A program made the translations under genes and the position numbers. A model generated the notes under the pieces. It saw nothing but the letters and a program-made list of their open reading frames with translations, was not told where the DNA came from and did no database searches. This document shows, one piece after another, positions 1 through 39,613 of a stretch of DNA of 64,000 nucleotides (its first letter is position 1; each line of letters begins with the position of its first letter). Origin of the DNA: Escherichia coli (lineage in GTDB: Bacteria; Pseudomonadota; Gammaproteobacteria; Enterobacterales; Enterobacteriaceae); assembly GCF_051903065.1 (NCBI RefSeq), contig NZ_CP178439.1; one strand, 5' to 3'.

Positions 1-876
1 ATGATTAAAAACAACGAGTTAATCCATCCTTTTGACGTAACCAGTAATGAATCAGGTAAGACTTATCAACTGACGCCTAACTCGTCCAAGTCGGTTCAGC
101 CCGTGGCCCTGTTGAGATTGAGTGTATTTACCCCTGTCGGCACAAAAGAAAACCGCGACCGAAACTTTGAAGTTGATGCCTCTGATGAGCTTTCGTGTAT
201 GGAAATTGCAAGATCGGAGGGTTATGACGACATCAAGATAACTGGTGTCAAACTATCTATGTCTACCGACTTTAAGTGCTGGCTCGGGATCATCATGGCT
301 TTCAGTAAATATGGTTTTACTTCCGAGAAGATTACCCTGACTTTTAACGAGTTTGCGAAGATGTGTGGTATCAGTTCAACAAACATCAACAAACGAACTC
401 GTGCGCGCTTTAAAGAGTCATTAATGAACCTTGCATCGGTAGTGCTTGCCTTCTCAGACTCTCGGAGTGGTCGGTTCACAGTAACGCATCTGGTGCAGAA
501 GGCTATGATTGATCCAAAAAGCGATACTGTTGAGTTGGTTGGGGATCCTTCTATGTGGGAACTGTATCGTTACGACCATAAGACATTGTTAAGCCTTCAG
601 GTTCTATACATTTTGGCTAAAAAAGAAGCTGCGCAATCTCTCTATATTTATTTTGAAGCAATGCCAGCTGGTACGTTGTTCGTTAATATGAAACGGTTGA
701 GGGAAAGGTTGCTTCTTACAACCCCTATTCGTACGCAAAACCAGATAATTCGTAAAGCAATGCGGGAACTTGAATCTATCGGATATCTCGATTATCAAGA
801 AGTTAAGAAAGGTCGCGACATACAATTTCAGATCTTCAAAAGAAGCCCTAAGCTGGCCCTCGCCAAACAAGGTTGA
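1..876 (+). CDS. repA: Plasmid replication initiator RepA (P1 RepA / RepFIB-like family)
   Basis: 291-aa ORF starting at window position 1; blocks VQPVALLRL, EGYDDIKITG, STDFKCWLG, KKEAAQSLY, IGYLD and KKGRD match P1-type RepA as I remember it; iteron-like repeats follow immediately downstream. Confidence 0.75.
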   Translation: MIKNNELIHPFDVTSNESGKTYQLTPNSSKSVQPVALLRLSVFTPVGTKENRDRNFEVDASDELSCMEIARSEGYDDIKITGVKLSMSTDFKCWLGIIMAFSKYGFTSEKITLTFNEFAKMCGISSTNINKRTRARFKESLMNLASVVLAFSDSRSGRFTVTHLVQKAMIDPKSDTVELVGDPSMWELYRYDHKTLLSLQVLYILAKKEAAQSLYIYFEAMPAGTLFVNMKRLRERLLLTTPIRTQNQIIRKAMRELESIGYLDYQEVKKGRDIQFQIFKRSPKLALAKQG

Positions 877-1104
877 AAGCTACCAGGTATGCACTGGTTA
901 TAACATGCTGAAAAATAAGTTATTTATCAGTGCTATGCTTAGTGCTTCTTTTACTACTGGTCTTACATCTCGGCTTAATGTGCAAAAAAGTAACTTTTCA
1001 AACGAACTCCTGACTATTCATCTGTATGCCTTTCTGACTCAAGCGTACATGCTAGCCCATTCATTAAATGCCGTGGAGCAAGATGGTTTCGTGCGCACTC
1101 TATT

Positions 1105-1605
1105 CACGTGAATGCCTTTTGTGGATTACGCCTCTTACATTCATACAAATGCTTTTGATGTCGGTATCCCAAAAAATCATTCATTGAAATGCTTTTGTTT
1201 GCCACTGTATCCCGAGCATAGCTATGCAGTGGTATAAAAAGGCATTTTGGTGAATGGCATTAGGTCGAATGACACACAGTACAGCTTTGTTAAGAGCGAG
1301 AATGGTCCAAGACATCTATGACATTGGGCATCAGAAGGACTATGTGTTTGATATGAGATCAAAAAAATATCAGAAGCATCACAACTCCAATGGCATTCAA
1401 AGAAATGCCTTTGTTTTGTTAGTACACCAAACAACCCAAAATTCATGCAGTTATATCAAAGACTCATTCGCAAAAGGACTCAGCCAGAAAGCATTTGCTT
1501 AAATAGCATTGGCCAAAAGCATTCGAATGAATGATGTTCATATGGACAAGACAAAGTCCCACTCACGCCCAGAGGTGTAAAAGGCATTTAGATGAATGAC
1601 GCACC
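1105..1605. repeat. Iteron-like short repeats downstream of repA (core AATGCCTTTTG / CAAAAGGCATT, both orientations, about 7 copies); incA-like copy-control candidate
   Basis: Copies read near 1108, 1145, 1184, 1246, 1389-1420, 1513 and 1577; the position after the rep gene parallels P1 incA. Confidence 0.45.
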
Positions 1606-2024
1606 GGCCGAGGATTGTATGTAGTTTCTCCAACTGATAGTTGCCGAACCAGGGAGCACAGTGATATGCGGCCTTCTCAGAATCAAGAGATAGATATTAA
1701 GGGAACAAAAAAGATTAGATATGAAGCTTAGTTACCTGCCCGATATCTAGTTAGAGCTTTTCAAACCATCAAAAGTGACTTTTATGCTTGAGGAGTCTCA
1801 TCAGCTTCAGGATTGAGCTTAACGTAATCTTACCCCCTCCCCTCTTTCAAACTTTTACTAAGCGTTCACTGGTACTTTTCAAAGATTATGCTTTAGGCCC
1901 CTTTGCTTAAAAATTCACCAATCGCTAAACGTTAAAAAAAGGGGGTTTATGCGAACGGAAGGATCGGAATAAAAAAGTATTATTCATTCGCGTTTACGTG
2001 AACTCAAATCTACACGGAGTAATT

Positions 2025-2378
2025 ATGGAACTTTCTTTAAATATTGGCCTTAGTGAAAAGAAATCTAACACGGCTGCACTTTTTAAAACAAAAAGCGCAA
2101 AAGTGATTTTGTTTGTTCTGCTGACCGTGCTTTTTTGCGGTCTGGCATATGCGGGTTCAGATGATGGGGCACTGGGAGATATTTGGTCATACATGAGTGA
2201 AAGTATGACTGGAGCTCCGGGCAAAATTCTGGCAGCCGCGATGTTGATCTCAAGCGTATATTTCTCTGTCCTTAAGCCTAACCCGGGCCTGGCACTGGTT
2301 TCATTATTCATGATGCTGGTAATGGCCAACGGCGAGAAAATTATCAGCACCTTTATGGATGCTGGCGTACCGCTGTAA
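2025..2378 (+). CDS. trhA: F-type conjugative propilin (TraA/TrhA-like)
   Basis: About 118 aa with a long leader ending AYA and a mature part with two hydrophobic segments; first gene of a traA-L-E-K-B-V-C-ordered operon; RBS GGAG before the ATG at 2025 (track ORF starts at 1998). Confidence 0.55.
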   Translation: MELSLNIGLSEKKSNTAALFKTKSAKVILFVLLTVLFCGLAYAGSDDGALGDIWSYMSESMTGAPGKILAAAMLISSVYFSVLKPNPGLALVSLFMMLVMANGEKIISTFMDAGVPL

Positions 2379-2428
2379 TTTATTGTTAATCATGCATGAG
2401 GGGGTTCATCCCCCTCTCTGGATTTTTA

Positions 2429-2746
2429 ATGAGTAAGCAGAACGACGTTCCTCAGCATACCTATAGATTCCCTTTCAGGATCAACATGCCTCTACTGATT
2501 TTGTTTTGGGATGCAAAAAAAATAGGGCTTGCATTCATTCTGGTTGCATTTGGGAATATCTTCGAATGCTTCGGGTTTTCTGTTGTAGCAGCGGTTGTAT
2601 ATTGGATTGCGTATAACAAAGCAGCTGAGTCAGGAATAAGAGGATTGCTAAAACACAGACTCTGGTGGCTCGGTTTTTTGCCAGGTAAAGCAGTTTTTAG
2701 TAGCCGTTATTTCAACGATCCATTTATCAGAGATTTGTATTCTTGA
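2429..2746 (+). CDS. trhL: TraL-like pilus assembly protein
   Basis: YRFPFRINMPLLILFWDA matches the TraL YRFP...FWD signature; small membrane protein; position after the pilin gene. Start taken at the internal Met (track ORF 2396). Confidence 0.6.
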   Translation: MSKQNDVPQHTYRFPFRINMPLLILFWDAKKIGLAFILVAFGNIFECFGFSVVAAVVYWIAYNKAAESGIRGLLKHRLWWLGFLPGKAVFSSRYFNDPFIRDLYS

Positions 2747-2757
2747 TGGAGCTATGA

Positions 2758-3546
2758 ATGAAAATGCTAAGTGGCATTAACATCCCTTTTTTCAAAAAAT
2801 CTAAAAAGGATGAAAACGGTGATCTTGAACAGTCATACGTAAAGAAAGATGAAAGTGCTAAGGGACGTTTTTTGGACATTAAAAAACGATTTAGCCCACA
2901 AGCTGAAGCGTCAGGTGCTGGAATTACATACAGCGCCCTGATTAATCGTGATACAAAACTTATCCGCATTAATACTGTTTCAATAGCCGTCATTGGGTTA
3001 TTGGTTGCAAAGATTCTTTTTTTCACTGACCCAGTGACGATTGTTACCCCTCCAAACATGAATGAAGAGATCACGGTTGTTGGTAACAAAGCATCGGAAT
3101 CTTATAAAACACAATGGGCTCTCTTTTTTAGTACCCTTTTAGGGAATATTAATCCAACTAATATTTCCTTTGTGACGGCCTATGTCCTCGATGCCCTTTC
3201 ACCTGAACTACAGGCTAAAACGAGTGAGTCTTTACAGGAGCAGATAAATATCATGCAGGCTCGTGGTGTTGAGCAGACCTTTAAGCCTAATGATATTTAC
3301 TTTGATCCAAAAAATGACATGGTCTATGTCTGGGGTACCAAAACGACTCGACTTGTAAATGTTCCGGACAAAACTGAATCATCGAAATGGACTTATGAAT
3401 GGGTTCTCGGGATGAAAAATGGTCGCCCAAGAATTGCATATGTAAATCAATATTCCGGAACACCGAATATTAAAAAAATTACGATAAACGGCAAAGAGCA
3501 ACTGGCAACGCTGGATAATCCGCCACCGTCTACAGGTAACAAGTGA
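2758..3546 (+). CDS. trhE: TraE-like (VirB8-like) mating-pair-formation protein
   Basis: 262 aa with an N-terminal transmembrane anchor (SIAVIGLLVAKILFF); operon position; GGAG RBS 6 nt upstream. Confidence 0.6.
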   Translation: MKMLSGINIPFFKKSKKDENGDLEQSYVKKDESAKGRFLDIKKRFSPQAEASGAGITYSALINRDTKLIRINTVSIAVIGLLVAKILFFTDPVTIVTPPNMNEEITVVGNKASESYKTQWALFFSTLLGNINPTNISFVTAYVLDALSPELQAKTSESLQEQINIMQARGVEQTFKPNDIYFDPKNDMVYVWGTKTTRLVNVPDKTESSKWTYEWVLGMKNGRPRIAYVNQYSGTPNIKKITINGKEQLATLDNPPPSTGNK

Positions 3547-4817
3547 TGATTAAAAAAAAGGGCTTAGGGTTCAACGCAATTACCGCATTGATCATGCTCA
3601 CGACTTCGAACTGCGTAATCGCTGAAGAATACCAATTGCCAGCAACAATTAATAACCCGGTTGTAATGCCAGTTGGTGCTGACGGATTTCAGAATGGAGC
3701 TGCAAAAGCCATTATTCCGGGTCAAGCTGGTTCTGAACAGTCAGGTGCACAAACAAACCTTAGTGAAGCCGGTAATGCGCAGGGACAAAAACCTACAACT
3801 GATCTCCCTACCGTGCAACTTTCCCCAGCCAGCAATGCTTCGCCTGCGGTAAGCGCTATTACTGGAGCATTATCAAATAATCCTAGTCTCCCCGGATTTG
3901 ACGCACAGACCCGCTCTGGTGCAATTGATAGCTATGGGAGACCAACAGGTACCTCTTCCCAGCAGAATGCAACCAATGCGACCGCCACGTCAAAAGCCGA
4001 TGAACTTTATGTCGAAGCTCGTAACCGATATAAAGAAGTTCAGCGTGTAAATGTGCCGCCTGGTGGGAATGTGGTACTGCCAGTTTCACGAGGACTTCAA
4101 AACAGAATATCGACCAGCTTCAAGAATGCTTCTGTCAGCACTTCTACCCCTGCTGAAGAGGCAAGCATATTTGTTAATGGTGGCGATGTCTTTATTTCAA
4201 CTAATACCGATAAACCAATCGGGATTATGTTGTCGGAAGATCAGGTACCTGAATCGACCTATAACCTGACCCTGGTACCGCTTGATGTTCCCGGTGCGAT
4301 GATTTCAGTTACTACATCTTTAAGCCCATCTATGCAAGCCAAACGTGAAACCTCATTGGATAAGCAAAACTATGAGGAAATGTTGGCCCGCTCCCAGTCA
4401 GAAGAACTGGCTCCATCGGATCCAAAACAAGACGATCATAAACAAAGAATCATTGATTTATTGACTCCTGTGGCTCTTGGTGAGGTCCCTTCAGGATTCA
4501 GTTTACAACAGGACCGACTTTCTCGTATTCCTGCGTCAGAGCAGTCCCCATGTAACTTTAATATGTATGCAAAGCTCGGTCAGAGACTGGTTGGCTCACG
4601 TGAACTTATTGATGTAATTCTTGTGAAAAACGATAAACCATACGGTCAAATCGTTGCTGATCAGCAGTGTATGGCAGAAGGCGTTATTGCAAGTGCTTTA
4701 TTTGATAAAGCATACCTGCAACCGGGAGAAGAAACAGAGCTTTACATAGTCCGGGATAAATTGTTCAAGGAACGCGAGGCCCGGGTTACAACCAGACCAA
4801 GTCTAATCAGAAAATAA
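3543..4817 (+). CDS. trhK: TraK-like secretin-type mating-pair-formation protein
   Basis: 424 aa with a signal peptide; operon position between traE-like and traB-like genes; start overlaps the trhE stop. Confidence 0.5.
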   Translation: MMIKKKGLGFNAITALIMLTTSNCVIAEEYQLPATINNPVVMPVGADGFQNGAAKAIIPGQAGSEQSGAQTNLSEAGNAQGQKPTTDLPTVQLSPASNASPAVSAITGALSNNPSLPGFDAQTRSGAIDSYGRPTGTSSQQNATNATATSKADELYVEARNRYKEVQRVNVPPGGNVVLPVSRGLQNRISTSFKNASVSTSTPAEEASIFVNGGDVFISTNTDKPIGIMLSEDQVPESTYNLTLVPLDVPGAMISVTTSLSPSMQAKRETSLDKQNYEEMLARSQSEELAPSDPKQDDHKQRIIDLLTPVALGEVPSGFSLQQDRLSRIPASEQSPCNFNMYAKLGQRLVGSRELIDVILVKNDKPYGQIVADQQCMAEGVIASALFDKAYLQPGEETELYIVRDKLFKEREARVTTRPSLIRK

Positions 4818-5636: not shown

Positions 5637-6033
5637 TGGAGCACCTCAAAAACACCATCATACACTAAATCAGTAAGTTGGCAGCATCACCCAAAAAGGA
5701 GTGTATTAATCGTTCCGGACGCACCCATTAGTATCGAAGATGGCAGTAACGCTTTTCCCGTTCAGACAGTAATAATGAACGATCCAACTCTTATTGATAA
5801 ATTTGTAGGAGAGGACAATATTAATGAGGAGAATGCTTTTGACTATCACAAAAGTAACGTTTTGGAACCTAATTACAAACATGAAATATCTAGAACGAGC
5901 CAGATAGATAAAGCTGAAATGAATCATCCATCTGTTCGTGAAAACTGGGCCAGAGCAGGTGATCCCTATATCGTTCCTCAGATGTCTGACAGCGAACGAA
6001 ATCTAAAAATTAAACGATTCCAGAAACCTACAA

Positions 6034-7401
6034 GTGGAGCTAATCATGGACATTAAAAAGGCCTGGGAAAATAAGACCGTCAGACTTTCTGTTATTGGCG
6101 CTCTGCTGGTAGTGATTGTTTATATTATTAGCCAGTCTATTTTTTCCACACCAGTTAAGAAAGAAAAGAAAACACAGAAAAAAGACATGCAGACCAATTT
6201 GTTGTTAGATGATTCGCAAATGAACAAATTGAGTAATGAAGAAAGCCAGAAAGTATATAAGGAAATGGTTAAGCAAAACCGACTTGATCAAAATGCGGCG
6301 AAAGAGGACCGCGAAAAAGCAGAAAAAGCCCAACAGGAAACTAAAGCCCAAGTTGCAAGTTTAACTTCTCAACTTCAGCAGCTGTCTCAGCAAATTAATG
6401 ATATGCAGACTAATCGAAACGGCAATCGTAACTTGGATGCTGGTAGTTCGCGTAAAACGATTAATGAGCAGGCACCGGCAGCTCCTTATCAGCTTAATGC
6501 TAATGCGCCGATTAATGGCGTAAACCCTAATTACGCGTCTATCACACCTACGCGTAATAGCCCGATGAGAACAATCACACAAAGTTCCATTAAGACTAAT
6601 GGTACCGATGGTGTCATTCAGGTTATGCCCGTGTCTGAAAACAGAATCAAGGAAGGCAGAGAGGTCATTGCAGGAGATAAAGCGCCTACTCGGACTGTAC
6701 GAGGTGATGGTACTGCGCCAGTTGATAGCAAAGCGCGGCATGCTGCCCGAAAAGATGAAATGTTTCTTCCGGCAACATCTATTATCACTGGTGTTCTGAT
6801 TACCGGGCTTGAAGCGCCTACAAGCCTTTCTTCCAAATCAGAACCAATGCCAGTAACAATGCGTATTAAAAAAGATGTCATCATGCCCAATAATTTCACC
6901 ATGGATTTGCGTGACTGTAACCTTCTGGGTTCAGCTGTTGGTGATTTGGCGTCACAGCGTGCTTACATACGTGCCACTTCTATCTCTTGTGTTAATTCAA
7001 AAGGGAAAGCTTTTGACGTAAAACTGGAAGCATATGCTGTAAGTGAAAATGACGGAAAAAATGGGATCCGAGGCACGCTTATCAGCCGAAATGGTAACGC
7101 AATTGCAGGAGCTGCATTTGCCGGTGGACTTTCTTCACTTGCCGGTAGCTTAAGCCCCAGTAAGGTATCTTCACTTAACATCGACCCTAATTCACAGGCT
7201 CAGTATCAGTCCCCTAATTTTGGTGCACTTGGGGCATTAGCCGGGGCTGGTGCAGCTCAAGGTGGCCTTAATCGACTCGTCGATTACTACACCGCAATTG
7301 CAGAACAACAGTGGCCAATCGTAGAAATTAGCCCTGGCCGAGCTATTACATTTGTCGTTCAGACCGGAACTACAATTCCAACGAATCTGACCAGTCGCTG
7401 A
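6034..7401 (+). CDS. trhB: TraB-like (VirB10-like) mating-pair-formation protein
   Basis: 455 aa; N-terminal membrane anchor, coiled-coil Q-rich segment and Gly/Ala-rich C-terminal domain; operon position. Confidence 0.6.
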   Translation: MELIMDIKKAWENKTVRLSVIGALLVVIVYIISQSIFSTPVKKEKKTQKKDMQTNLLLDDSQMNKLSNEESQKVYKEMVKQNRLDQNAAKEDREKAEKAQQETKAQVASLTSQLQQLSQQINDMQTNRNGNRNLDAGSSRKTINEQAPAAPYQLNANAPINGVNPNYASITPTRNSPMRTITQSSIKTNGTDGVIQVMPVSENRIKEGREVIAGDKAPTRTVRGDGTAPVDSKARHAARKDEMFLPATSIITGVLITGLEAPTSLSSKSEPMPVTMRIKKDVIMPNNFTMDLRDCNLLGSAVGDLASQRAYIRATSISCVNSKGKAFDVKLEAYAVSENDGKNGIRGTLISRNGNAIAGAAFAGGLSSLAGSLSPSKVSSLNIDPNSQAQYQSPNFGALGALAGAGAAQGGLNRLVDYYTAIAEQQWPIVEISPGRAITFVVQTGTTIPTNLTSR

Positions 7402-7904: not shown

Positions 7905-8762
7905 GTGAAAAAGTTACTTTTCCCTTTAATGGCGGCTTTCGCCATTATGGCGAATACGGTCACTTATGCTTCAGAGCAGGTCCTAACTAATAGTGATGCT
8001 GCTGCGTTAATGGCAAAGGCAAAGGAAGGCGGCGTTTCACCCAGTCAGATCTCGGGTGCGTTATCAAAAATGAAAGGATATAAACCTAAGGATGCCATAT
8101 ACATTCCTTCTGGTGGGCTATACCTCTTTCAGGACGAGCGTTCGCAGCTAATGGCAGTAACGACCGATGGCCGATACTCCCTTACTGGGGGAAGCCTTGT
8201 TGATGTAATTAAACGTAAACCTGTTCTGACTGTAGAAGAAATCAGAAATTCCTATTTTATTAGTCTTGATGAGGCCCCCTTCCCTCTGGAAACTGTAGCG
8301 TCCATTCATCTGGGAAATTCAAAGCTTAAGAGACAAGCAGCCATTTTCTTAACACTTGATTGTGACGGTTGCATGGAACTTGTTAAGAAATTTTATGCAG
8401 ATCGGGACAAGTATCGGATAGATATTGTTTTAGTTCCCTCACCCGGTGAGCCAAAAGAAGAGCTTAGAAGGCTCTGGTGTAGTAAAGAAAAAGGAAAAAT
8501 AAACAACCTCGATATTCTTCGTTGGCTAATGGGAAGCAAATCCGACATTGAAAAAAGATTGCTCTCTCAAAAAGAAGCAGAAGAATGTCCGGCGGAACCT
8601 TTGGTAGCGTCATTGATGCTCGCAGGAATTTATAAATTGCAGGGTGTACCTTCAGTTGTCAGACAGGATGGTTTGGCTGGTAATGGCATTCCAAAAGATT
8701 TCGACTACTGGTTGAACCAAAGCGTTGAACCTCTCTTAAAAAATCCATTTGAGACAAATTAA
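7905..8762 (+). CDS. Periplasmic thioredoxin-fold protein with CxxC (CDGC) motif, DsbC/TrbB-like
   Basis: GTG start after RBS GAGGG; signal peptide KKLLFPLMAAFAIMANTVTYA; CDGC motif; F-type systems carry DsbC-like TrbB proteins. Confidence 0.5.
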   Translation: MKKLLFPLMAAFAIMANTVTYASEQVLTNSDAAALMAKAKEGGVSPSQISGALSKMKGYKPKDAIYIPSGGLYLFQDERSQLMAVTTDGRYSLTGGSLVDVIKRKPVLTVEEIRNSYFISLDEAPFPLETVASIHLGNSKLKRQAAIFLTLDCDGCMELVKKFYADRDKYRIDIVLVPSPGEPKEELRRLWCSKEKGKINNLDILRWLMGSKSDIEKRLLSQKEAEECPAEPLVASLMLAGIYKLQGVPSVVRQDGLAGNGIPKDFDYWLNQSVEPLLKNPFETN

Positions 8763-9730: not shown

Positions 9731-12412
9731 ATGGAAGCTATCAATAATTACAATAGCGGTTTAAATCGCCATCAATTAGGTGGGTTTATCCCTGTTTACG
9801 ATCAATTAGCAGGGACTCACTATTTTTTGATTGATGGCAACAGATTAGGGTTTATGTTTATCTGTAATCCATCACCTGGAGTTTTTGATAATCAGCAAGA
9901 TGTTCTTGCTGAAATGTTCAAAATGGATTTTCCTACAGATACTGTCTGTCAAATATCTCTGACTGCATTGCCAGACTTGACTTTACAGCTTAGTGCTTGG
10001 TCAGCTGTGCGAGGTGGGCGTATGACTGGGAACGATAAGCTTAAAGCAGATCTGCTTAATGGTTATCAGTTGGACTACTACGACAGAAGTATGCATAAGC
10101 CTTTAAAACCTGATCATGATAACCTTATGTTGAGGGATTTTCAGGTATGGATCTCGCTATCGATTCCTTTACAGTCTGCCCTTCCTACCGAGCTGGAACA
10201 TTCGCGTATCGATTCACTTTACTCTGAACTTGTAAGTAAGTTAATTACGATTGGACTGCATCCGTTTAAGGTCGATGCAGAAAACTGGCTCTATTGTATA
10301 GATAAGGTCGTAAACCCCGGAAAGAACTCTCGGTGGGCTGAAGGTTTTATAGACGTTAACACTATGAAAAGGCTTAATGAACAAGTTAACGTTCCCGGCC
10401 GAAAGTATACAGTCACAGAAAATCATTTCTCATCAGTCACACAAAGTGACGACGAATCTGAGCATCGTTACTTCAAACAACTTTCCGTTGTAAAGTTTCC
10501 TGAATACGTCAATTTCGGTTGTATGTATGAGTTAGTAGTTAACTGGATGCATGGACGTAAGACAATTTTCAGCCCATTTATGATCACTCAGACTGTTCAG
10601 TTTGCCGATCCGCTCAAGTTGTCAAAAGAAAACGTCCGCTACAAAGCAATCACTAATAAACAGGCAAGTATACCTTCAGTTGTCACATTCTGCCCTCGCC
10701 TGCGGGATATGGATAATGACTACATGGCCGTAACTCGCGAGCTTGAGGATGGCGCAAAGCTTTTAAGAGGGTATCTTACTTTCACTGTTATGGGTAGTAA
10801 TGCCAATTCTGTGCAGACAGCAGCTAACGATCTCAAATCCTTTTACCTCGAAAGCCGGGTCAAAGTAGCAGATGATTCCTTTATCGTTTTCCCGTCATTT
10901 ATGTCATGTCTGCCAATGTGCAATGACCCAAAGACAATTTTCGACCTTGACCGTTCCGAAGTAGTGAGCAACACCGGAGCGGCTCATATGACGCCGATCT
11001 TTGGGCCCTGGAAAGGTAATACAGATAGACCAGTACTGAGTTTAGTTTCTCGTGAAGGTCAACTCATGGGACTTGATATTTTCAAGACTTCTGCAAGCTA
11101 TAACATGGTTATTGGTGCAACGTCAGGTGCAGGCAAGTCATTCTGGACAGCATATCTAATCAATAACTATCTTGGAGCTGGACCGCGATCTAATAACCTC
11201 GTTCATTATCGCTCAACATTTAAGCATTTTTTAGAAAACGAATACCCAGATGATGATCCTGATGGTGCTCAAGTTTTTGTAGTGGACGTGGGGCGTTCTT
11301 ACCAGGGGATTGCGGAACAATATACAAACAGTCAATTTATTGATTTCGGTAAAACCCCTGACTTCACCCTAAATCCCTTTGCCTTCCTAACTGACATCAC
11401 TGTTAACGACGATGTATTTAACGAAGCACCTGAATTTACCGGTGAATCAACTTCAAACGATGCAGAAAAAGACAAAGTTGCTCAGACCATAATGGTTCTG
11501 AATCAGCTAAAAATTATGGCTTCAGAGAAAGGCCTTATCGATGATTATCAACAATCAGTGATGCTTCAGCTTATTGCAGAAGAGTACCAGGAATCCAGAA
11601 AATCAGGTCGGACCGGTTCAATAACCGGCTTTGCTCTGCGTTGCAAGAAGCATGAAGACAAACGTATAAAGGATATTGGGGAGCAACTCGGAGCATGGTG
11701 CGAAGGTGGAATTTATGGGCACCGGTTTACCGATACGTTGCCTCCAATCAACTTCGACAGCAGATTTATTGTTTTGGAACTGGAGGAGCTAAAAGGCACC
11801 CCCCACCTTCAGACAGTTGTTTTAATGTCTATCATTCAGGCTGCTCAGCATGCAATGTTCATCAAAAAAGATGGGCGTCGTCGCTTGTTCATCCTAGATG
11901 AAGCTTGGGAGTACATTCGTCCTGATAATTCATCAGGTGCCGGAAATCAATCAAACCAATTCTTCTCTTCCTTCCTCGAAGCGGCATGGCGTAGGTTCAG
12001 GAAAACAAACTGCGCTGGCATCTGTATCACACAGTCGTTTGAAGATTATTTTACTTCTTCTGTTGGCCGGGCCCTGACTGCTAACTCGCCTTGGAAGATA
12101 ATCATGAAACAAGAAAAAGAAAGCATTGAAGCAATGAAGGCTAATAAATATTTTTCTACTTCAGATGCAGAATATGAACGAATGAAAAATATTCGTACAG
12201 TCAAAAAGGTGTTTTCAGAGATGTTAGTCAGGTTCGAAAACTTCCAAGAGATCTGTCGGTTATACGTAGACCGGAAAATGGAGCTTTGTTTTACTACGGA
12301 TAGTGCTGACAGGAGTAAATTATGGGAAATTCAAAGCCGCGAGAATTGTAGCTATGGCGAGGCAATAGAAATTCTCTATGCTCAAGAAGTAGCAGCGGGT
12401 TTGGCCGCGTAG
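9731..12412 (+). CDS. trhC: TraC-like (VirB4 family) conjugative ATPase
   Basis: 893 aa; Walker A GATSGAGKS; Walker B-like LFILDEAWE; size and position typical of F-type TraC. Confidence 0.85.
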   Translation: MEAINNYNSGLNRHQLGGFIPVYDQLAGTHYFLIDGNRLGFMFICNPSPGVFDNQQDVLAEMFKMDFPTDTVCQISLTALPDLTLQLSAWSAVRGGRMTGNDKLKADLLNGYQLDYYDRSMHKPLKPDHDNLMLRDFQVWISLSIPLQSALPTELEHSRIDSLYSELVSKLITIGLHPFKVDAENWLYCIDKVVNPGKNSRWAEGFIDVNTMKRLNEQVNVPGRKYTVTENHFSSVTQSDDESEHRYFKQLSVVKFPEYVNFGCMYELVVNWMHGRKTIFSPFMITQTVQFADPLKLSKENVRYKAITNKQASIPSVVTFCPRLRDMDNDYMAVTRELEDGAKLLRGYLTFTVMGSNANSVQTAANDLKSFYLESRVKVADDSFIVFPSFMSCLPMCNDPKTIFDLDRSEVVSNTGAAHMTPIFGPWKGNTDRPVLSLVSREGQLMGLDIFKTSASYNMVIGATSGAGKSFWTAYLINNYLGAGPRSNNLVHYRSTFKHFLENEYPDDDPDGAQVFVVDVGRSYQGIAEQYTNSQFIDFGKTPDFTLNPFAFLTDITVNDDVFNEAPEFTGESTSNDAEKDKVAQTIMVLNQLKIMASEKGLIDDYQQSVMLQLIAEEYQESRKSGRTGSITGFALRCKKHEDKRIKDIGEQLGAWCEGGIYGHRFTDTLPPINFDSRFIVLELEELKGTPHLQTVVLMSIIQAAQHAMFIKKDGRRRLFILDEAWEYIRPDNSSGAGNQSNQFFSSFLEAAWRRFRKTNCAGICITQSFEDYFTSSVGRALTANSPWKIIMKQEKESIEAMKANKYFSTSDAEYERMKNIRTVKKVFSEMLVRFENFQEICRLYVDRKMELCFTTDSADRSKLWEIQSRENCSYGEAIEILYAQEVAAGLAA

Positions 12413-12442
12413 AGTAAATATCTTCAAGCAAAAACAATTAAA

Positions 12443-12471
12443 CCAGATGTCTCATAAGAATCTGGTTTTTT
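12443..12471 (+). terminator. Hairpin plus T-run after trhC
   Basis: CCAGATgtctcataagaATCTGG followed by TTTTTT. Confidence 0.5.
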
Positions 12472-12829
12472 ATTGTATGCCTTAAGTAAACAAATGAGGT
12501 TATGACTTAATGAGTTCATCACTGTGCTGCAAATTTTGGTTTTATAATTAATATGGCTTAAAAACAGTGACATAATTACAAATCGCATTTAGGTTGTGTA
12601 CGCATTAAGTAAACAAAATTTATAACATCAATACTGACTTTATAAGATGAAATTCACGTAAATTACATTTTTGTTTACCAAAGGTAATCAAAGGAGCGCG
12701 GCATTATTAGTGAAAACAGATCACTGGTGTCATATTGCATACAAAACTTAATATCCTTTAATCATTCTTCTAAAAGTTTAATATTAACGCTTTGGTTTAT
12801 GAAAATTTATCCAATTTGCTCACCGAAGA

Positions 12830-15800
12830 CTTTTAACTTATTTAACCCCCTTTATCGCCAATCTGTGATTTTCTAATGTTAGCCTACAGTTCTAGGGCCC
12901 TTGCTCCCATGATGCGAATCCTTCCACCTAATAAAGATTAACGCCTCATTCCTGTATGCCGGTCTTACGACGCCAGTGCTCGGGCTATTTTCGGTCCTAA
13001 CAAGACCTGGCGAGAGATTTAATCAGGGCGTGGTGTGACTGAGCAGCAGCTGGGGCACTGTTATCCGCTTGCAGATTTAACCCCCTTAATCGCCAAACTG
13101 GGGTACTGTCCTGATGCTGGCCTTCAGTTCTGGGCTGGGTGGCTATCACTTCCTCCCATAATGCGAAATGTAACTGCTGATACAGATTAACGTCATATTC
13201 CTGCGTGCCGGTCTGCCAACACCAGTGCACGGGCTTTTTTCGGTCATCACATTACCGGGCAGGAGATTTTATCAGGGCGTGGTGTGACTGAGCAGAAGCT
13301 GGGGCACTGTCAGCAGCTTGCAGATTTAACCCCCTTAATCGCCACACTGGGATTCTGGTCTGATATTGACCTTCCGTTCTGGGCGGGGTTCGGTTTGCTA
13401 ACACTTACTCCCATGATACGAAATGTGCCTGCTGATACAGATTAAAATCACATTACTGCATACCGGTCTGCCGACACCGGTGCATGGGCGATTTCCGACG
13501 ATCTCAAGAACATATGGGAGATTATATCAGGGAGAGTAGTATGCCTGAGCAGCATCTGAAGGCACTGTCAGCCGCTGTCAGATTTAACCCCCTTAATCGC
13601 CAAACTGGTGTTCTGTCCTCATGCAGGCCTTCAGTTCTGAGCTGGGTTGCTATCACTTGCTCCCATAATGCGAAATGTACCTGCTGATACAAATTAACGT
13701 CGTATTCCTGTATGCCGGTCTGCCGACACCAGTGCTCGGGCTATTTTCGGTCCTAACAAGACCTGGCGAGAGATTTAATCAGGGCGTGGTGTGACTGAGC
13801 AGCAGCTGGGGCACTGTTATCCGCTTGCAGATTTAACCCCCTTAATCGCCAAACTGGGGTACTGTCCTGATGCTGGCCTTCAGTTCTGGGCTGGGTGGCT
13901 ATCACTTCCTCCCATAATGCGAAATGTAACTGCTGATACAGATTAACGTCATATTCCTGCGTGCCGGTCTGCCAACACCAGTGCACGGGCTTTTTTCGGT
14001 CATCACATTACCGGGCAGGAGATTTTATCAGGGCGTGGTGTGACTGAGCAGAAGCTGGGGCACTGTCAGCAGCTTGCAGATTTAACCCCCTTAATCGCCA
14101 CACTGGGATTCTGGTCTGATATTGACCTTCCGTTCTGGGCGGGGTTCGGTTTGCTAACACTTACTCCCATGATACGAAATGTGCCTGCTGATACAGATTA
14201 AAATCACATTACTGCATACCGGTCTGCCGACACCGGTGCATGGGCGATTTCCGACGATCTCAAGAACATATGGGAGATTATATCAGGGAGAGTAGTATGC
14301 CTGAGCAGCATCTGAAGGCACTGTCAGCCGCTGTCAGATTTAACCCCCTTAATCGCCAAACTGGTGTTCTGTCCTCATGCAGGCCTTCAGTTCTGAGCTG
14401 GGTTGCTATCACTTGCTCCCATAATGCGAAATGTACCTGCTGATACAAATTAACGTCGTATTCCTGTATGCCGGTCTGCCGACACCAGTGCTCGGGCTAT
14501 TTTCGGTCCTAACAAGACCTGGCGAGAGATTTAATCAGGGCGTGGTGTGACTGAGCAGCAGCTGGGGCACTGTTATCCGCTTGCAGATTTAACCCCCTTA
14601 ATCGCCACACTGGGGTTCAGTCCTGATAGTGTCCTTCCGTCCTGGGCTCGGTTGCTAACACTTGCTCCCATTGCGCCTGCTGATACAGATTAAAGTCACA
14701 TTACTGCATACCGATCTGCCGACTCCGGTGCATGGCTTTTTCCGATAATCACAAGGACGGACGGGTGATTTTATCTTTGCATAGTATGTCTGAGCAGCAT
14801 CAGAAGGCTCTGTCAGCCACTGGCAGATTTAACCCCCTTAATCTCCAAACTGGGATCAGTCCTGATAGTGTCCTTCCGTCCTGGGCAGGGTTGCTAACAC
14901 TTGCTCCCATGATACGAAATGCGCCAGCTGATACAGATTAACGTCTCATTACTCCATGCCGGTCTGCCGAAACTGGTGCATAGCTTTTTTCGATATTCGC
15001 ATGAACAGACGCTTGATTTTTTCAGGTTGTAATATACCTGAGCAGCATCTGAAGGCACTTTCAGTCTCTGTCAGATTTAACCCCCTTAATCGCCAATCTG
15101 GGATTTTCTGATGTTAACCTACAGTTCAAGGCCCTTGCTCCCATGATGCGAACCTTGCAACCTGATAAAGATTTAAGCCTCATTCCTGTATGCCGGTCTT
15201 ACGACTCTAGTGCACGGGGACTATTTTCGGTCATAATAAGACCTGGCGGGAGATTTAATCAGGCGTGGTGTGACTGAGCAGAAGCTGGGGCACTGTCAGC
15301 CGCTGGCAGATTAAAACCCTTTATTCGCCATCTCAAGACGTCATTATGGGTAGTCCTTTTAACTTTCTAAGGACCATTAAGCTTAAACTCCGTTTAGAGA
15401 ATGACGTAAGATTTAGGCTAAGCAGGTTAAGTGATCCCCGCTCCCGGGTTGAACACTTTATTCATCGTACGAGCGAAAGATTGTCCTTCGGGAAATATTT
15501 CTTATACACCGCTCGGGCACTTACAGCCACTGGCGGATTTAACCCCCTTAATCGCCAAACTGGGGTACTGTCCTGATGCTGGCCTTCAGTTCTGGGCTGG
15601 GTGGCTATCACTTGCTCCCCTAATGCGAAATGTGTCTGTTGATACAGATTAACGTCATTTTCCTGCGTGCCGGTCTGCCGACACCAGTGCACGGCCTTTT
15701 TTCGGTCATTACATTACCGGGCAGGAGATTTTATCAGGGCGTGGTGTTACTGAGCAGGAGCTGGGGCACTATCAGCAGCTTGCATATTTAACTCCCTTAA

Positions 15801-16410
15801 TCGCCAAACTGGTGTTCTGTCCTCATGCTGGCCTTCAGTTCTGGGCTGGGTTGCTATCTCTTGCTCCCATAATGCGAAATGTATCTGCTGATACAGATTA
15901 ACGTCATATTCCTGTATGCCGGTCTGCCGACACCAGTGCTTGGGCTATTTTCGGTCATAACAAGACCTGGCGAGAGATTTACTCAGGGCGTGGTGTGACT
16001 GAGCAGCAGCTGGGGCACTGTCATCCGCTTGCAAATTTAACCCCCTTAATCGCCAAACTTGGGTTTTGTCCTGATGCTGGCCTTCCGTTCTGGGCGGGGT
16101 TGCTATCACTTGCTCCCATCATGCGAAAAGTGCCTGCTGATACAGATTAACGTCATATTCCTTCATGCCGGTCTGCCGACACAAATGCACGGGCTTTTTT
16201 CGGTCCTTACAATACCGGGCAGGAGATTTAATCAGGGCGTGGTGTGACTGAGCAGCAGCTAGGACACTGTCAGCCGCTGGCAGATTTAACCCCCTTAATC
16301 GCCACACTGGGGTTGCCTCCTGAAGTTGGGTTTCAGTTCTGGGCTAGGTTGCTAACTCTGCTCCCATAATTCGTAGTGGGCCTACTCAAGAGATTAACAC
16401 CTCATATCTT
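12830..16410. repeat. Tandem array of about 15 units of about 249 bp, including a near-identical 756-bp (three-unit) duplication
   Basis: Anchor CAGATTTAACCCCCTTAATCGCCA recurs at about 12836, 13072, 13321, 13579, 13828, 14077, 14335, 14584, 14824, 15072, 15306, 15534, 15782, 16032 and 16281; track ORF pairs 12997..13230 / 13753..13986 and 13484..13687 / 14240..14443 are identical. Confidence 0.9.
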
Positions 16411-16711: not shown

Positions 16712-16749
16712 ACGCATTATGCGTAAAGTTTACATATATGCGTAAAAGT
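16712..16749. promoter_or_regulatory. Palindrome ACGCATTATGCGT and nearby ATGCGTAAA half-site upstream of parA; candidate operator
   Basis: Perfect 13-bp palindrome about 55 bp before the parA start; type I ParA proteins with N-terminal extensions autoregulate at such sites. Confidence 0.3.
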
Positions 16750-16777: not shown

Positions 16778-18031
16778 ATGAATTTACTTGAAAAGATCGC
16801 CCTCGTTGGTCAGCGCATGAAAAGCGAGCAGATTTCTCTTAAGGAATCTCTGATGGCTTCATCAAGAGTATCTGTTTCTGATGATAGTGTTGATGGTGTT
16901 GATAGACTGATCTACAACCACTGTTTAAATAAAAAAAATCTCTCTGATTTTTTTGGGAAGTCACGAGTAACGTTCAATAAAATACTTTCGGACTTAGAAG
17001 AAAAAGAACTTGTTGGTGCACCTATTTATCAAAACAAAAATCATCTTTACACCCGCTGGGATGTTCAAAAAATAATGGATGCCCTGGGTTATCCCAAGTA
17101 CCGCGATCATTACTTTAGCAGAGCTATTGTTACTCAGAATCATAAAGGCGGTACAGGGAAAAGCACTACATCTGTAGCTTTAGCAGTAGCAGCTGCTTTA
17201 GATCTACAACTGAATGCACGTGTATTAATGATCGAATGGGACCCACAAGGTTCGATTGGAAGCAGCATGATTCAAAGTGTCTCAGAAGATGATGTCTTCC
17301 TTACAGCAATTGATGCAATCCTTGGAATTTATGAAGAAAATTCTGAGTATAAAAAATATTTAGATTCAGGATTCTCTGAAGAAGAAATCATCACTAATAT
17401 GCCTTTTTCAACGCATCTGCCAAACTTGGACGTGATAACGGCATTTCCGACAGATGCTCGTTTTAAAGATAAATACTGGCAATGTTCTAGAGAAGAACGA
17501 ACGTCTTTGTTACTACGTTTCAAGGAAGTTATCTTACCGGTACTGAAGCAGAACTATGATTTGATTATTATAGACACTCCACCTGAAGATTCACCTTTGA
17601 TCTGGGCTGCTGACGAAGCGGCCGATGGGATTCTTGTCGCAGTGTCACCACGTGAATATGATTACGCCTCTACTACAGACTTCATGCTTACAATAAGTGA
17701 AAGGTTTAAACAATCACCAAGTAAGGGCGATAATTTAAAATGGTTCAAAGTTCTTGCTGTCAATGTTGATGACAAAAGTCCATATGAAAGAATAGTTTTG
17801 GATAAATTAATCAGAACTGTTCAGGACCTTTTGATGTCCGCTAACATAAAAAATTCTGAAGCATTTAAGGCAGCTGCTTCCAAAGGGCGTACAGTGCTTG
17901 ATATCAAAAAATCAGAGGAACTTTGTTCCGCAAAGCAACTTGATGTCGCAGAAGAATCTGTATTACAGGTATATCAACAATTTATAAATGAAATAAAAAG
18001 TTTTTCAGCTAAGCAAGGAGTTAACGCATGA
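16778..18031 (+). CDS. parA: Partition ATPase ParA (type Ia, Walker type with N-terminal extension)
   Basis: 417 aa; deviant Walker A KGGTGKSTT; long N-terminal region typical of SopA/P1 ParA-type proteins. Confidence 0.85.
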   Translation: MNLLEKIALVGQRMKSEQISLKESLMASSRVSVSDDSVDGVDRLIYNHCLNKKNLSDFFGKSRVTFNKILSDLEEKELVGAPIYQNKNHLYTRWDVQKIMDALGYPKYRDHYFSRAIVTQNHKGGTGKSTTSVALAVAAALDLQLNARVLMIEWDPQGSIGSSMIQSVSEDDVFLTAIDAILGIYEENSEYKKYLDSGFSEEEIITNMPFSTHLPNLDVITAFPTDARFKDKYWQCSREERTSLLLRFKEVILPVLKQNYDLIIIDTPPEDSPLIWAADEAADGILVAVSPREYDYASTTDFMLTISERFKQSPSKGDNLKWFKVLAVNVDDKSPYERIVLDKLIRTVQDLLMSANIKNSEAFKAAASKGRTVLDIKKSEELCSAKQLDVAEESVLQVYQQFINEIKSFSAKQGVNA

Positions 18032-19032
18032 GCGATGAGCAACATATCGGGAATGATAAATCTCGATATTTAAACGCACCAAAGCGGACAGAAGTCGGTC
18101 ACCGTTCAGGTCTTGCGGGTTTGAAAACAGCACCTCGCATAAAAAAGTTATTCACTCTTCATAAGGGCCGAAGACTTGAAGCGGAACATGTGATTGTTCC
18201 AGCCCAGAGAGTGGAGAAGGAGACCTTAGTCCATCCAGCAAACCCACGAAATCAAGAAGCCCTTACAGATTATTCTGTTAGAGATATTCTTAAGCAGATT
18301 GAAGAAAGAGGGGTCGATACCGAAGGGATCGCTGTAAAAAGAGATGGGGTTTATTTATTAATAGAAGGAAGTCGCAGACGTTTCTGCTGTATAAAGGCAG
18401 AAAAGGATCTCCCCCTGTGGGTACTACCGGATGAACTAACCGAAGATGATATAAATTCAATTATATCCGCAGCACAAACATCTCGAAAATTTTCATATAG
18501 AGAAGTTGGGTTTCAATTTATCAAGAAAATGGAAGAAAAGGGATTTTCTACTAATGAAGAACTCGCAGCATATCTTGGGATTAGTCATGTATCGGTAGCC
18601 AAAAGAATCCAGGCGGCCCGTATTGACGAAACATTGATCTCTTTATTCCCGGATTATGAAGGAATACCGAACTCCTATTATAGTCGCTTGTCTCGTTTAC
18701 AGAAATATGTGCAAAAAAATCTATTTCCTTTAGATGAAGTAATAGATAATGTTAAAGAGGAAACAAAAGATTTAGACATTGGAGATCTCCAAGTTGCCCA
18801 AAAAGTTGTAATGGAGAAAATCACACAAGCTGTGGAAAGTGTTTGTGAAAAATCTTATTCCACAAAATGGGAAACAAGTGATCTTATTACTTTTGATAAC
18901 AAAGATAAGTATGCAAGAATCAGTAAAAACAATACTGGAAGAAAAATTCGCATTGAATTCAATAGGATAAGTGCGGGTTTTATTAAGGAGCTAGAGGAGT
19001 TCATAAAAGAAAAATTAAAAGTATCAGAATAA
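18028..19032 (+). CDS. parB: Partition protein ParB
   Basis: 334 aa, translationally coupled to parA (4-bp overlap); ParB-like GSRRRF box. Confidence 0.7.
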   Translation: MSDEQHIGNDKSRYLNAPKRTEVGHRSGLAGLKTAPRIKKLFTLHKGRRLEAEHVIVPAQRVEKETLVHPANPRNQEALTDYSVRDILKQIEERGVDTEGIAVKRDGVYLLIEGSRRRFCCIKAEKDLPLWVLPDELTEDDINSIISAAQTSRKFSYREVGFQFIKKMEEKGFSTNEELAAYLGISHVSVAKRIQAARIDETLISLFPDYEGIPNSYYSRLSRLQKYVQKNLFPLDEVIDNVKEETKDLDIGDLQVAQKVVMEKITQAVESVCEKSYSTKWETSDLITFDNKDKYARISKNNTGRKIRIEFNRISAGFIKELEEFIKEKLKVSE

Positions 19033-21774: not shown

Positions 21775-22795
21775 AAATTCCTCTACGTATGTTTACATCG
21801 ATGATACGGTATTTCGAGCTATGATTTTTTTACATAAAGGCGTCATTTTGGATTCTAAGCCTAAGGACCTTTGTTACTTACTGGTAAAGGCTCCAGTCCT
21901 GGCTCTCAAACAGTTCATACTTAGGATGCAAAGTAACTTTCTGATTATAATTGGCTCCTTTATAAACATGTTTACTTCATGAATACAGGATATTTAACGG
22001 TAATGTATTTAAAATGGAAGGATGCTGAAATAACATAGAGTTACGTATTTTTTTAATAGTGTTGATGTTGATAATAGGTCACCATTAATGTATAAAGTTA
22101 ATATCTAATATGGTCCTATTAATAAAAGAGAGTTTTTATGGCTGAACTATTAAAATCTGAAAGTCCTGTTTCACAATCATTGCAGGATATCACTGAAGCT
22201 TTAAAAATCGTTGTCGATGATGGAAGTAAAGCTGCAAAACTGGTTTGTCTTAATGAAAGAAACGAATTAGTTCCCTTGCTCACACAAAATAGTTTTGTTC
22301 CAGATTTCCGTGTTCGCCATGAGGGTCTCAATCCTTTTAACTATCTTATTGATGGGCTGGAAAGGTTTTCGCATCACAGCGAATCTAGTAACTCACTGGA
22401 ATCGACTGATGTATCTCACCAATACGATGAAATTAGCCGGTTAAATGTTCACCATGCACTTCATGCTTCTGGTTTAGTTCCTCAGGATGTTCACCTCTTT
22501 GTTACTTTACCTCTTAGCCAGTTCTATACTGCTTTAGGGGAAACGAATATTGAAAATATTCAGAGAAAAAAAGATAACCTGATGAAACCAGTTGAGCGTT
22601 ATCTTGACGGTAAACGCTATTCTTTCAACGTTTTGTCTGTGACTGTTTTCCCTGAATCTTTACCAGCTGTGACCCGGGCAGATGAAATTGAGGATATTGC
22701 TTCATTTGAATCAAGTTTGGTAATTGATCTTGGTGGTACTACTCTTGATGTTGCAAGTATTACTGGGCAATTAGAACAGATTTCGAAAGTAAAAG

Positions 22796-23992
<1,197 letters not shown>

Positions 23993-37828: not shown

Positions 37829-39613
37829 ATGGGTAAGCCAACAGAAGAGCAAAGACCTGTTATCGAGAATGCTAGCGCAAACAATATGGTGATAGCAGCG
37901 CCTGGATCAGGCAAATCATTCACCATGATAGAAGCGGTTATATCGATTCTCAAAAAGTATCCATATGCAAGAATCGGGATGGTGACCTTTACTCGCGCTG
38001 CAACAAACGCACTTGCAGCAAAGTTACAAAAGCGATTGAGCAAGAAGGATCTTGACCGGGTGCTGGTGGATACTTTTCACGGACTCGTTAAGAAGCAACT
38101 GGACATGATTCGCTGGCCGGGAAAGATGTTGATAGGGCCAGCACAGAGATCTGTCATTCACCGGGCTTTGAAAGAATCCGGTGTAACGATGAAGTTTGCT
38201 GAAGCTGAATTCGTTATTGATGCTATCGGCAGAGAAATGGATACGGATGTGATTTCAGTTCGGCATAACAGACAACAGATCCATTTATTTAATACCTATC
38301 AGGCGTTATGCCAGAAAGACCATGTGGCGGACCTCAATGCTCTTTCAAAATTTGTTGTCGGTCAAATGCATTCGGGAAAAATGCGCACGTTAGATTTGAC
38401 ACATTTGATAGTAGACGAAGTTCAGGATACTGACTCTATACAATTCTCATGGATAGCATTGCATACAAGAGCTGGAGTCTATACGAGTATAGTTGGAGAC
38501 GATGATCAGGCCATCTACTCCTTCAGATCCTCAGGAGGAGTCAAAATATTTCAACAGTTTGAAAAACACTTCAGACCTAACATATTTTACTTAAACACAT
38601 GCTTTAGGTGTGAACCTGAAATTTTAGAGGTGGCCGGAGCACTGATAGGAAAGAATGTTTACCGTTATGCCAAAGAGTTACGCTCGGCAAAAAAGGGAGG
38701 AGGAAAGGTCACTTTTCGTTCATATGTAGATATGGAGGAACAGATACAGGGTATTTTAAGCCTTATAAATCAGGATCCACATGGATGGGCAATTCTAAGC
38801 CGCAATAATGCTCACTTGGATGAGCTAGAAAGTTTGATCGAACAGCCAGTAATTCGTTACGGAGGTAAATCATTCTGGGATGAAAAAGAAACAAGCGATG
38901 TGTTAAGCCTTATGGCCTTTTTCCGACAATCAAATGATCCTCGCTTAATGAAGAGAGTATTGGCATTGTTTGGAGAACAGGAATCAGTTTTGGATGAAGT
39001 GGCATTGAGTATGAGAGGAAGAAAAGTTACTTTTGGCGACCTTGCCATCCCGGAGGACAGTTCTCTCGAAACAAAAACATTACATTCAAACTTCGTGCGC
39101 TTTACCCAGGAAAGTACTGATAAAGTTGAGATAGCAAAACGTTTCGCCAACCTTACGAAATGGATGGAATCGTCGTCAATCAAGATGAGGAGTAATAAAG
39201 GTACAGCAACCTTAACAAAAATTGCTTTAGACACTTGTAAACAGTGGGCAGAAAAGACTGGTTGGATGAATATGATCAATCGTGCTGCTGCAATGTCATT
39301 AGGCCCTAGGAAGAAGGACGAGGAATACAGCCCAGAGAAAGTAGTCCTATCAACCTTGCATGGTTCAAAGGGTCTTGAGTGGAATAAAGTAATAATAATG
39401 AGTTGTAATGCGGATCAGATACCAAGTAAAAGATCAGTTGGGGAGGAGGCAATAGAAGAAGAAAGACGTTTGCTTTATGTTGGATTTACGCGTGCAGAAA
39501 AGCAACTTTTTGTAATGTGGTATGGTGACCCTTCTTTCTTTTTAAGAGAATGCAGTGAAGAAAAGATAAAAGAAGCAGCTAATATTCGAATTTCTCCAGT
39601 TTATACAGAATAA
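37829..39613 (+). CDS. UvrD/Rep-like superfamily 1 DNA helicase
   Basis: 594 aa; motif I AAPGSGKSFT, motif II LIVDEVQDT, motif VI VGFTRAEKQL. Confidence 0.8.
   Translation: MGKPTEEQRPVIENASANNMVIAAPGSGKSFTMIEAVISILKKYPYARIGMVTFTRAATNALAAKLQKRLSKKDLDRVLVDTFHGLVKKQLDMIRWPGKMLIGPAQRSVIHRALKESGVTMKFAEAEFVIDAIGREMDTDVISVRHNRQQIHLFNTYQALCQKDHVADLNALSKFVVGQMHSGKMRTLDLTHLIVDEVQDTDSIQFSWIALHTRAGVYTSIVGDDDQAIYSFRSSGGVKIFQQFEKHFRPNIFYLNTCFRCEPEILEVAGALIGKNVYRYAKELRSAKKGGGKVTFRSYVDMEEQIQGILSLINQDPHGWAILSRNNAHLDELESLIEQPVIRYGGKSFWDEKETSDVLSLMAFFRQSNDPRLMKRVLALFGEQESVLDEVALSMRGRKVTFGDLAIPEDSSLETKTLHSNFVRFTQESTDKVEIAKRFANLTKWMESSSIKMRSNKGTATLTKIALDTCKQWAEKTGWMNMINRAAAMSLGPRKKDEEYSPEKVVLSTLHGSKGLEWNKVIIMSCNADQIPSKRSVGEEAIEEERRLLYVGFTRAEKQLFVMWYGDPSFFLRECSEEKIKEAANIRISPVYTE

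Follow-up and report, generated by a model that had tools for sequence, protein, structure and literature searches.

In the parS centromere of P1, box A is reportedly read by the helix-turn-helix of ParB and box B by its dimer domain, and the Par1 module of the IncHI1 plasmid R27 is said to stabilise plasmids and to exert incompatibility. The sopC centromere of F is composed of 12 tandem 43-bp repeats with one SopB site each, and it is established that its copy number is above need and that the array is a source of partition incompatibility (PMC3177203). Here we analysed a 64,000-nucleotide stretch of an Escherichia coli contig (NZ_CP178439.1), hereafter the window, which carries a 3.6-kb array of long tandem repeats between trhC and the partition genes parA and parB. 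The window is IncHI2 backbone, 100% identical to the IncHI2/HI2A plasmid pR18.0877_278k from Salmonella Goldcoast. This array is likely to serve the IncHI2 Par1 type Ia module parA-parB as its cis-acting centromere, in the form of a multi-site parS, and a 21-bp core repeated along it is very probably the ParB-binding site. Rather than a new system, the array is most likely a known kind of element whose units are unusually long.

A full-text literature search, with the primary papers on R27 and R478 outside the searched set, did not turn up any account of the array or any paper containing the core sequence. The array has been public in sequence since R478, and it may well have been noticed earlier.

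Array anatomy and the candidate ParB site

Tandem repeats of about 249 bp with some 15 anchors had been claimed between trhC and parA in an earlier note on this DNA, and both the anchor counts and Tandem Repeats Finder bore this out. The program reported a period of 249 at 12900-15330 (9.8 copies, 76% matches) and again at 15511-16370 (3.5 copies, 86% matches). All 15 copies of the 24-bp anchor are on the + strand, with none on the - strand; consecutive copies are 227-258 bp apart (mode 249) and start at 12837, 13072, 13321, 13579, 13828, 14077, 14335, 14584, 14824, 15072, 15307, 15534, 15783, 16032 and 16281. The whole array (12837-16410, + strand) comprises 13 full units (235-258 bp), a degenerate core with its non-repeat insert, and a last unit that is truncated, all in a single orientation. 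Its GC content is about 0.50, compared to 0.35-0.42 in the flanks.

Within the anchor lies the 21-bp core ATTTAACCCCCTTAATCGCCA. When the 64-kb window was scanned for this core with up to three mismatches, 14 matches were obtained against 0.01 expected by chance, all of them inside the array and none in the rest of the window. The candidate ParB sites are all on the + strand and are located at 12840-12860 (core 1, one mismatch, ATTTAACCCCCTTTATCGCCA), 13075-13095 (core 2, ATTTAACCCCCTTAATCGCCA), 13324-13344 (core 3), 13582-13602 (core 4), 13831-13851 (core 5), 14080-14100 (core 6), 14338-14358 (core 7), 14587-14607 (core 8), 14827-14847 (core 9, one mismatch, TCTCCA replacing TCGCCA), 15075-15095 (core 10), 15537-15557 (core 12), 15786-15806 (core 13, one mismatch), 16035-16055 (core 14) and 16284-16304 (core 15, in the truncated last unit). 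Core 11 (15310-15330, + strand; ATTAAAACCCTTTATTCGCCA) is degenerate, with four mismatches to the 24-bp anchor. The exact hexamer TCGCCA is present in 13 of the 15 cores. Across 24 distinct units from three plasmids, the core is the best-conserved part of the unit, with a mean column identity of 0.96-0.98 against 0.83 overall. The unit is indeed far longer than typical parS sites, as had been remarked, and its functional part is apparently just the 21-bp core with about 50 bp of flank.

Upon alignment, the units fell into forms of 235, 240, 248, 249 and 258 bp with pairwise identities of 63-95%, which is more than the three subtypes that had been counted from the letters alone. The eleventh 'unit' (15307-15533) consists of the degenerate core followed by a lower-GC, non-repeat insert of about 200 bp (15331-15533, + strand) that breaks the array, and it is only about 40% identical to the other units. 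Together, a 235-bp unit and the following 227-bp insert-bearing segment make up a 462-bp compound. No counterpart of the insert was found in the intergenic regions of the IncHI1, IncHI1B, Klebsiella or Raoultella plasmids.

The two genes downstream of the array encode proteins related to those of P1. ParA (16778-18031, + strand; 417 amino acids) is a type Ia Walker ATPase 25% identical to P1 ParA, with the ATPase core beginning at about residue 108-115 according to the NCBIfam ParA/RepA/SopA models; the BLASTP alignment to P1 ParA (E = 3e-17) begins at residue 62 and thereby includes the N-terminal extension. ParB (18028-19032, + strand) is 28-29% identical to P1 ParB and matched PDB 1zx4/2ntz (P1 ParB 142-333) over residues 150-330 (E = 4e-16), a stretch that takes in the two DNA-binding domains, the helix-turn-helix and the C-terminal dimer domain. 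Its GSRRR motif is invariant across the ParB alignment, and TIGR00180 and PRK13698 matched it at scores under their curated cut-offs. By these homologies, parA-parB is classed as a type Ia, P1-like partition module.

The core itself bears a likeness to the P1 sites. As annotated in AF234172, P1 parS has the box B TCGCCA and the box A ATTTCAC/ATTTCAA, with A2 starting 14 nucleotides before B2, and its right half reads ATTTCAA-G-GTGAAA[T]CGCCA. The IncHI core reads ATTTAAC-CC-CCTTAA[T]CGCCA, in which ATTTAAC is one mismatch from box A and starts 15 nucleotides before an exact TCGCCA; the 8-mer AATCGCCA is common to the two. Because the protein is a P1-ParB homologue and the core combines an exact box B with a box-A-like heptamer at P1-like spacing, we infer that the core is a ParB site. 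Each unit of about 249 bp would carry one such site, with the box-A-like heptamer contacted by the helix-turn-helix and the TCGCCA hexamer by the C-terminal dimer domain, in a box order that would correspond to the A2-A3-B2 part of P1 parS. ParB dimers would load at the 13-15 cores to form a partition complex, and this complex would stimulate nucleoid-bound ParA, so that plasmid copies are positioned before division.

Most weight falls on the comparison with related plasmids. The trhC-parA gap of R27 contains at least 26 identical cores in about 2.2 kb, 52-54 bp apart and all on the + strand, and an IncHI1B Citrobacter plasmid has 11 cores at 54-bp spacing upstream of parA. When the IncHI2 unit was compared with these IncHI1 and IncHI1B regions by BLAST, only unit positions ~230-249 and 1-53 aligned, that is, the core and its flanks; beyond the core and about 50 bp surrounding it, the IncHI2/IncHI1 intergenic alignment is limited to about 135 bp just upstream of parA. 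The earlier note had offered a centromere or incompatibility determinant, or a protein-binding array, among its readings, and a role of this kind is supported by the comparison, in which the anchor is the sole part of the unit common to the IncHI1 and IncHI1B arrays. Related cores beside more distant parAB genes and P1-type boxes beside a P1-ParB homologue likewise argue for protein binding.

Among those more distant loci, Klebsiella pC39 (pC39-334kb; ParB 48% identical) has 67-bp repeats upstream of parA with the core AAAACAACCCCGTTGTTCGCAG, and Raoultella p602815-tet (ParB 47% identical) has 67-bp units with the core AAAACAACCCCCTTGTTCGCAG, 42 upstream of parA and 14 downstream of parB. In p602815-tet, the two candidate centromere arrays flank parAB at 519-3353 and 6068-7030 of the compared region, and the upstream one shows a clear 334-bp higher-order period of five units. 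In Providencia pPROV275 (ParB 53% identical), parAB is flanked by one site on each side: AAAACAACCCCCTTGTTCGCCA, about 130 bp upstream of parA, and, behind parB, AAAACCACCCCCTTGTTCGCCA. All the parAB homologues examined with ParB identities down to 47% thus have related cores next to them; no such array was found at the parAB genes of a Vibrio homologue with 33% ParB identity. Given this pattern, the short core tracks the parAB family, with unit length and inter-core sequence being lineage-specific.

The cores and proteins may also vary together. The TCGCAG-ending cores, found in two closely related plasmids, accompany ParBs with the C-terminal motif GQK..EFKR, and the ParBs of the TCGCCA type, including that of P1, have GR(K/A)..EFNR at the same place (residues ~300-315 of the window ParB). 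With two closely related plasmids as its basis, this hints at site-protein co-variation, and the motif is maybe a determinant of box B specificity.

Two other explanations of the array bear on this evidence. It is very unlikely that the array is a selfish or neutral satellite, an expanding repeat with no partition role on a plasmid whose true centromere lies elsewhere. The recent and perfect expansions and the wide range of copy number among similar plasmids (two cores in pSH111_227, 11 in R478, 14 in an E. coli O157 plasmid and 15 here) are what such a satellite would show, but copy-number variation is normal in genuine centromere arrays too. Moreover, the 21-bp core is identical in IncHI1 and IncHI2 although the remaining intergenic region cannot be aligned, it is confined to the array within the 64-kb window, and the related cores at the distant parAB homologues include single, non-repeated sites. 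A conserved element of about 21 bp in a large array of same-orientation direct repeats would also fit iterons that bind a replication initiator and control copy number or replicon incompatibility. We regard this as extremely improbable, as the neighbours of the array are conjugation and partition genes and no rep gene or origin lies beside it, the core holds ParB-type boxes, and the array follows parAB across plasmid lineages, even where trhC is not adjacent. In the listed stretches of the matching record, which take in most of the window (~4,400-64,000), no rep gene is annotated.

Several points weigh against a ParB-binding centromere. The centromeres of P1 and F lie downstream of parB and are single or made of short 43-bp units, whereas the present array lies upstream and has 249-bp units. 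ParB binding, stability and incompatibility are all deduced here from sequence, and the co-occurrence of array and parAB may merely reflect membership of a shared backbone. The likeness to the P1 boxes was spotted post hoc and is a lead rather than proof; where P1 has an inverted box A directly next to box B (GTGAAAT), the core has CCTTAAT, a weak match (4/7). The units lack an IHF consensus, barring one chance match in ten units scanned. Finally, about 175 bp of each unit, including fully conserved short blocks, is left without a function.

The IncHI2-specific remainder of the unit

The IncHI2-specific part amounts to about 175-195 bp per unit. With sensitive BLAST it was found in 1,128 records, only within IncHI2 arrays and in all such arrays, and nothing in the intergenic regions of the IncHI1, IncHI1B, Klebsiella or Raoultella plasmids matched it. 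An origin as a mobile element or as borrowed sequence was considered and rejected, as this part occurs nowhere outside IncHI2 arrays and has no convincing terminal inverted repeats. Also rejected was a derivation of the 249-bp unit from a decayed run of four or five 54-bp units, as the core-region consensuses of R27, IncHI1B and IncHI2 aligned no better to the IncHI2-specific part than to its shuffles (p ~0.35-0.48).

The earlier note had suggested repeated small transcription units, each yielding a small RNA or peptide that ends at a hairpin and T-run. What speaks for them is a CCGGT-N9-ACCGG stem with a nearby T-run in some units, together with open reading frames (ORFs) of 62-77 codons inside the array. 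The perfect CCGGT/ACCGG stem is indeed present, confirming that much of the GC-rich inverted repeat that had been reported, but only in certain subtypes: most units carry a mismatch in it (ACCAGT), and about 9 nucleotides separate it from the T-run. No promoter-like site was detected inside the array, the whole scanned region containing two against 6.8 expected, both outside the units, and the five terminator-like sites in the array region are at chance level (4.2 expected). No Rfam family was matched at E <= 1 on either strand. RNAalifold of 24 distinct units (261 columns) gave weak structures of -7.4 and -11.1 kcal/mol on the two strands with a covariation term of about -0.7, which is essentially no covariation, and one unit folded as single-stranded DNA was of unremarkable stability (z-score 0.17). 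The ORFs differ in strand and frame from unit to unit and recur solely through the 756-bp duplication described below. Transcription units therefore have next to no probability, and a coding role of the array was rejected in view of the short ORFs with inconsistent strand and frame.

Additional ParB boxes were also sought. Heptamers like box A occur on average 1.5 times per unit, the core's own included, compared to 0.6 in shuffles; no extra exact B box is present in the IncHI2-specific part, and extra A/B boxes were judged not above shuffled expectation.

The chief alternative, which we think rather improbable, is a composite element in which the core is the ParB site and the IncHI2-specific module of about 175 bp is co-amplified for a function of its own. 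The module might bind a second protein or a host factor, set a spacing that governs how ParB loads or spreads, or insulate parAB from the trhC operon. Such a composite would agree with the presence of the module in all IncHI2 arrays and only there, with a unit length near 249 bp in most subtypes, and with several short blocks (CTGAGCAG, GATT and GCCGGTCT) that are invariant in the 24 distinct units despite 17% overall divergence. However, gene conversion or unequal exchange can hold blocks identical without selection, and the module has no A/B boxes above shuffles, no IHF consensus, no conserved secondary structure, promoter or terminator, and no similarity outside IncHI2. IncHI1 plasmids and those with 67-bp units also manage without it. 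Given that neither a promoter, a convincing terminator, an Rfam match, a conserved fold nor further ParB boxes were found, we read the IncHI2-specific part as a spacer amplified along with the core. Its invariant blocks need no selection, since homogenisation within arrays can yield them.

How the long unit came about can be suggested with low confidence. The 16-mer CTGGGGnnCTGTC, present on both sides of each core, falls within the roughly 50 bp held in common with IncHI1 repeats and is similar to the one spacer element that the R27 unit has. On this basis, an ancestral array of short units may have gained about 175 bp, by insertion or by replacement of some of its sequence, before the resulting compound was amplified.

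Duplication, distribution and neighbouring genes

A three-unit block duplicated almost perfectly 756 bp apart had been reported from the letters, and the duplication proved stronger than claimed, being exact. Units 2-4 and units 5-7 are 100% identical, positions 12973-13851 equal 13729-14607 in a mismatch-free run of 879 nucleotides, and the perfect period-756 higher-order repeat extends over 12973-14607 (+ strand; 2.16 copies). Three independent plasmid records have the same arrangement at 99.9-100% identity over the full 4,401 bases, indicating that the duplication is not an assembly artefact of one record. The R478 array does not have it.

The 462-bp compound is present twice in R478, where one copy opens the array and the other lies mid-array, twice in the O157 plasmid and once here. 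Insert-like segments were seen at ~4300-4520 and ~5750-5970 of the compared R478 region. Unit subtypes are common to several plasmids. The perfect 756-bp duplication, the compound copies, the cross-plasmid subtypes and the range of copy number indicate that the array evolves by ongoing unequal recombination between units, giving rise to higher-order duplications and differences in copy number.

The array was matched in 1,129 plasmid records, all apparently IncHI2, with varying length, and parAB of the IncHI2 type occurs in about 1,127 records, which are nearly the same set. The array of pSH111_227, with its two cores, is possibly a collapsed assembly. In the IncHI2 plasmid p680_1 of Citrobacter freundii (3013-4762 of the compared region), trhC is followed by three leftover cores and then directly by hdtA; both partition modules have been lost by deletion, and one endpoint falls within the array. 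Length polymorphism of the array can mislead short-read assemblies, and it could double as a fine-scale typing marker.

Upstream of the array, trhC (TraC family; 9731-12412, + strand) is followed by a hairpin and T-run at about 12441-12472 (AACCAGAT...ATCTGGTTTTTT). On the other side lies a candidate operator/promoter region of parA (16712-16749, + strand), 30-65 bp before the start of that gene, in which the palindrome ACGCATTATGCGT is accompanied by TATGCGTAAA(A)GT in two copies. The motif is also found in R27 (7913-7958 of the compared region), within the sole intergenic stretch, about 135 bp long, that is conserved with R27 and IncHI1B. The palindrome and direct repeats are likely to be a ParA autoregulatory operator or a promoter. 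Downstream, parB ends at 19032 and the next ORF at 19094, which leaves no space for a centromere at the usual place behind parB.

The plasmid's other partition module, Par2 (parM/parR), is disrupted in the window. The parM gene (22138-22842) matches R478 up to about 22797 and then runs into the IS5-family end GGAAGGTGCGAATAAG of ISKpn26; an IS5-like transposase gene lies at 22943-23923 (- strand), and the remainder of parM and the downstream Par2 gene are absent ahead of hdtA. With Par2 destroyed by this IS5-like insertion, Par1 and the array are the sole intact partition system here, and stable inheritance of the present plasmid probably rests on ParA/ParB and the array alone. Elsewhere in the window, an ORF of 594 codons is present at 37829-39613 (+ strand), where the table of the plasmid record, known to be incomplete, lists no gene.

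Comparison with related partition loci

The closest counterpart of the array is formed by the Par1 repeats of R27. The two have the identical 21-bp core, the same orientation and the same location between trhC and parA; their ParA and ParB proteins are homologous (ParB 71% identical), and the operator-like sequence upstream of parA is conserved. They differ in the unit, which is 52-54 bp in R27 and 235-258 bp (mode 249) here. Homology between the two units is limited to about 70 bp, comprising the core and its flanks, and about 175 bp of the IncHI2 unit has no counterpart in R27 or IncHI1B. R27 has at least 26 cores in about 2.2 kb, against 15 in 3.6 kb here.

With P1, the locus shares a homologous ParA, a ParB homologous over the helix-turn-helix and dimer domains, the exact TCGCCA and the 8-mer AATCGCCA; ATTTAAC is a box-A-like heptamer (versus ATTTCAC/ATTTCAA, at 15 versus 14 nucleotides). 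However, P1 has a single parS, behind parB, that includes an IHF site and four A boxes, whereas here 15 sites lie upstream of parA, with no IHF consensus and one A/B set per unit. As in sopC of F, tandem units in the same orientation each carry one motif for a type Ia centromere-binding protein, which is a candidate motif in the present case. The sopC array, in contrast, lies downstream of sopB and is made of near-identical 43-bp units with a 16-bp perfect inverted-repeat motif, while the present 249-bp units have diverged into subtypes (63-95%) and their motif is asymmetric.

The 67-bp arrays of the IncHI-related plasmids pC39-334kb and p602815-tet resemble the present one in having an A-rich hexamer, a C-run, TTGTT and then CGCAG, in lying upstream of parA and in showing higher-order periodicity (334 bp, five units). 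They are unlike it in the TCGCAG ending, the AACAAC/GTTGTT arms, a ParB only 47-48% identical, and the second array downstream of parB. Should the IncHI2-specific module prove functional, through a second factor or through a spacing that alters ParB clamp loading, spreading or bridging, the array would be a composite long-unit centromere endowed with properties not found in the 52-67-bp arrays of sister plasmids; we judge this unlikely.

The identical core and the 71%-identical ParBs of IncHI1 and IncHI2 predict partition-mediated incompatibility across the subgroups, and the array could be a cross-subgroup determinant of this kind that helps to define the IncHI complex. IncHI2 plasmids are major carriers of mcr, extended-spectrum beta-lactamase (ESBL), carbapenemase and metal-resistance genes. 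A 21-bp candidate ParB site that is exact in both IncHI1 and IncHI2 offers a target for binding studies and for curing by incompatibility, and a way of explaining incompatibility across the subgroups. Homologous candidate centromeres with units of 52, 54, 67 and 249 bp, together with a single-site form, make up a natural experiment on site number and spacing in ParB complexes, and the main value of the locus lies in this unit-length series and in the defined candidate site. Taken together, the element resembles sopC of F as a probable tandem multi-site centromere, would be recognised by ParB in the manner of P1, and by these comparisons is best grouped with the Par1 repeats of R27.

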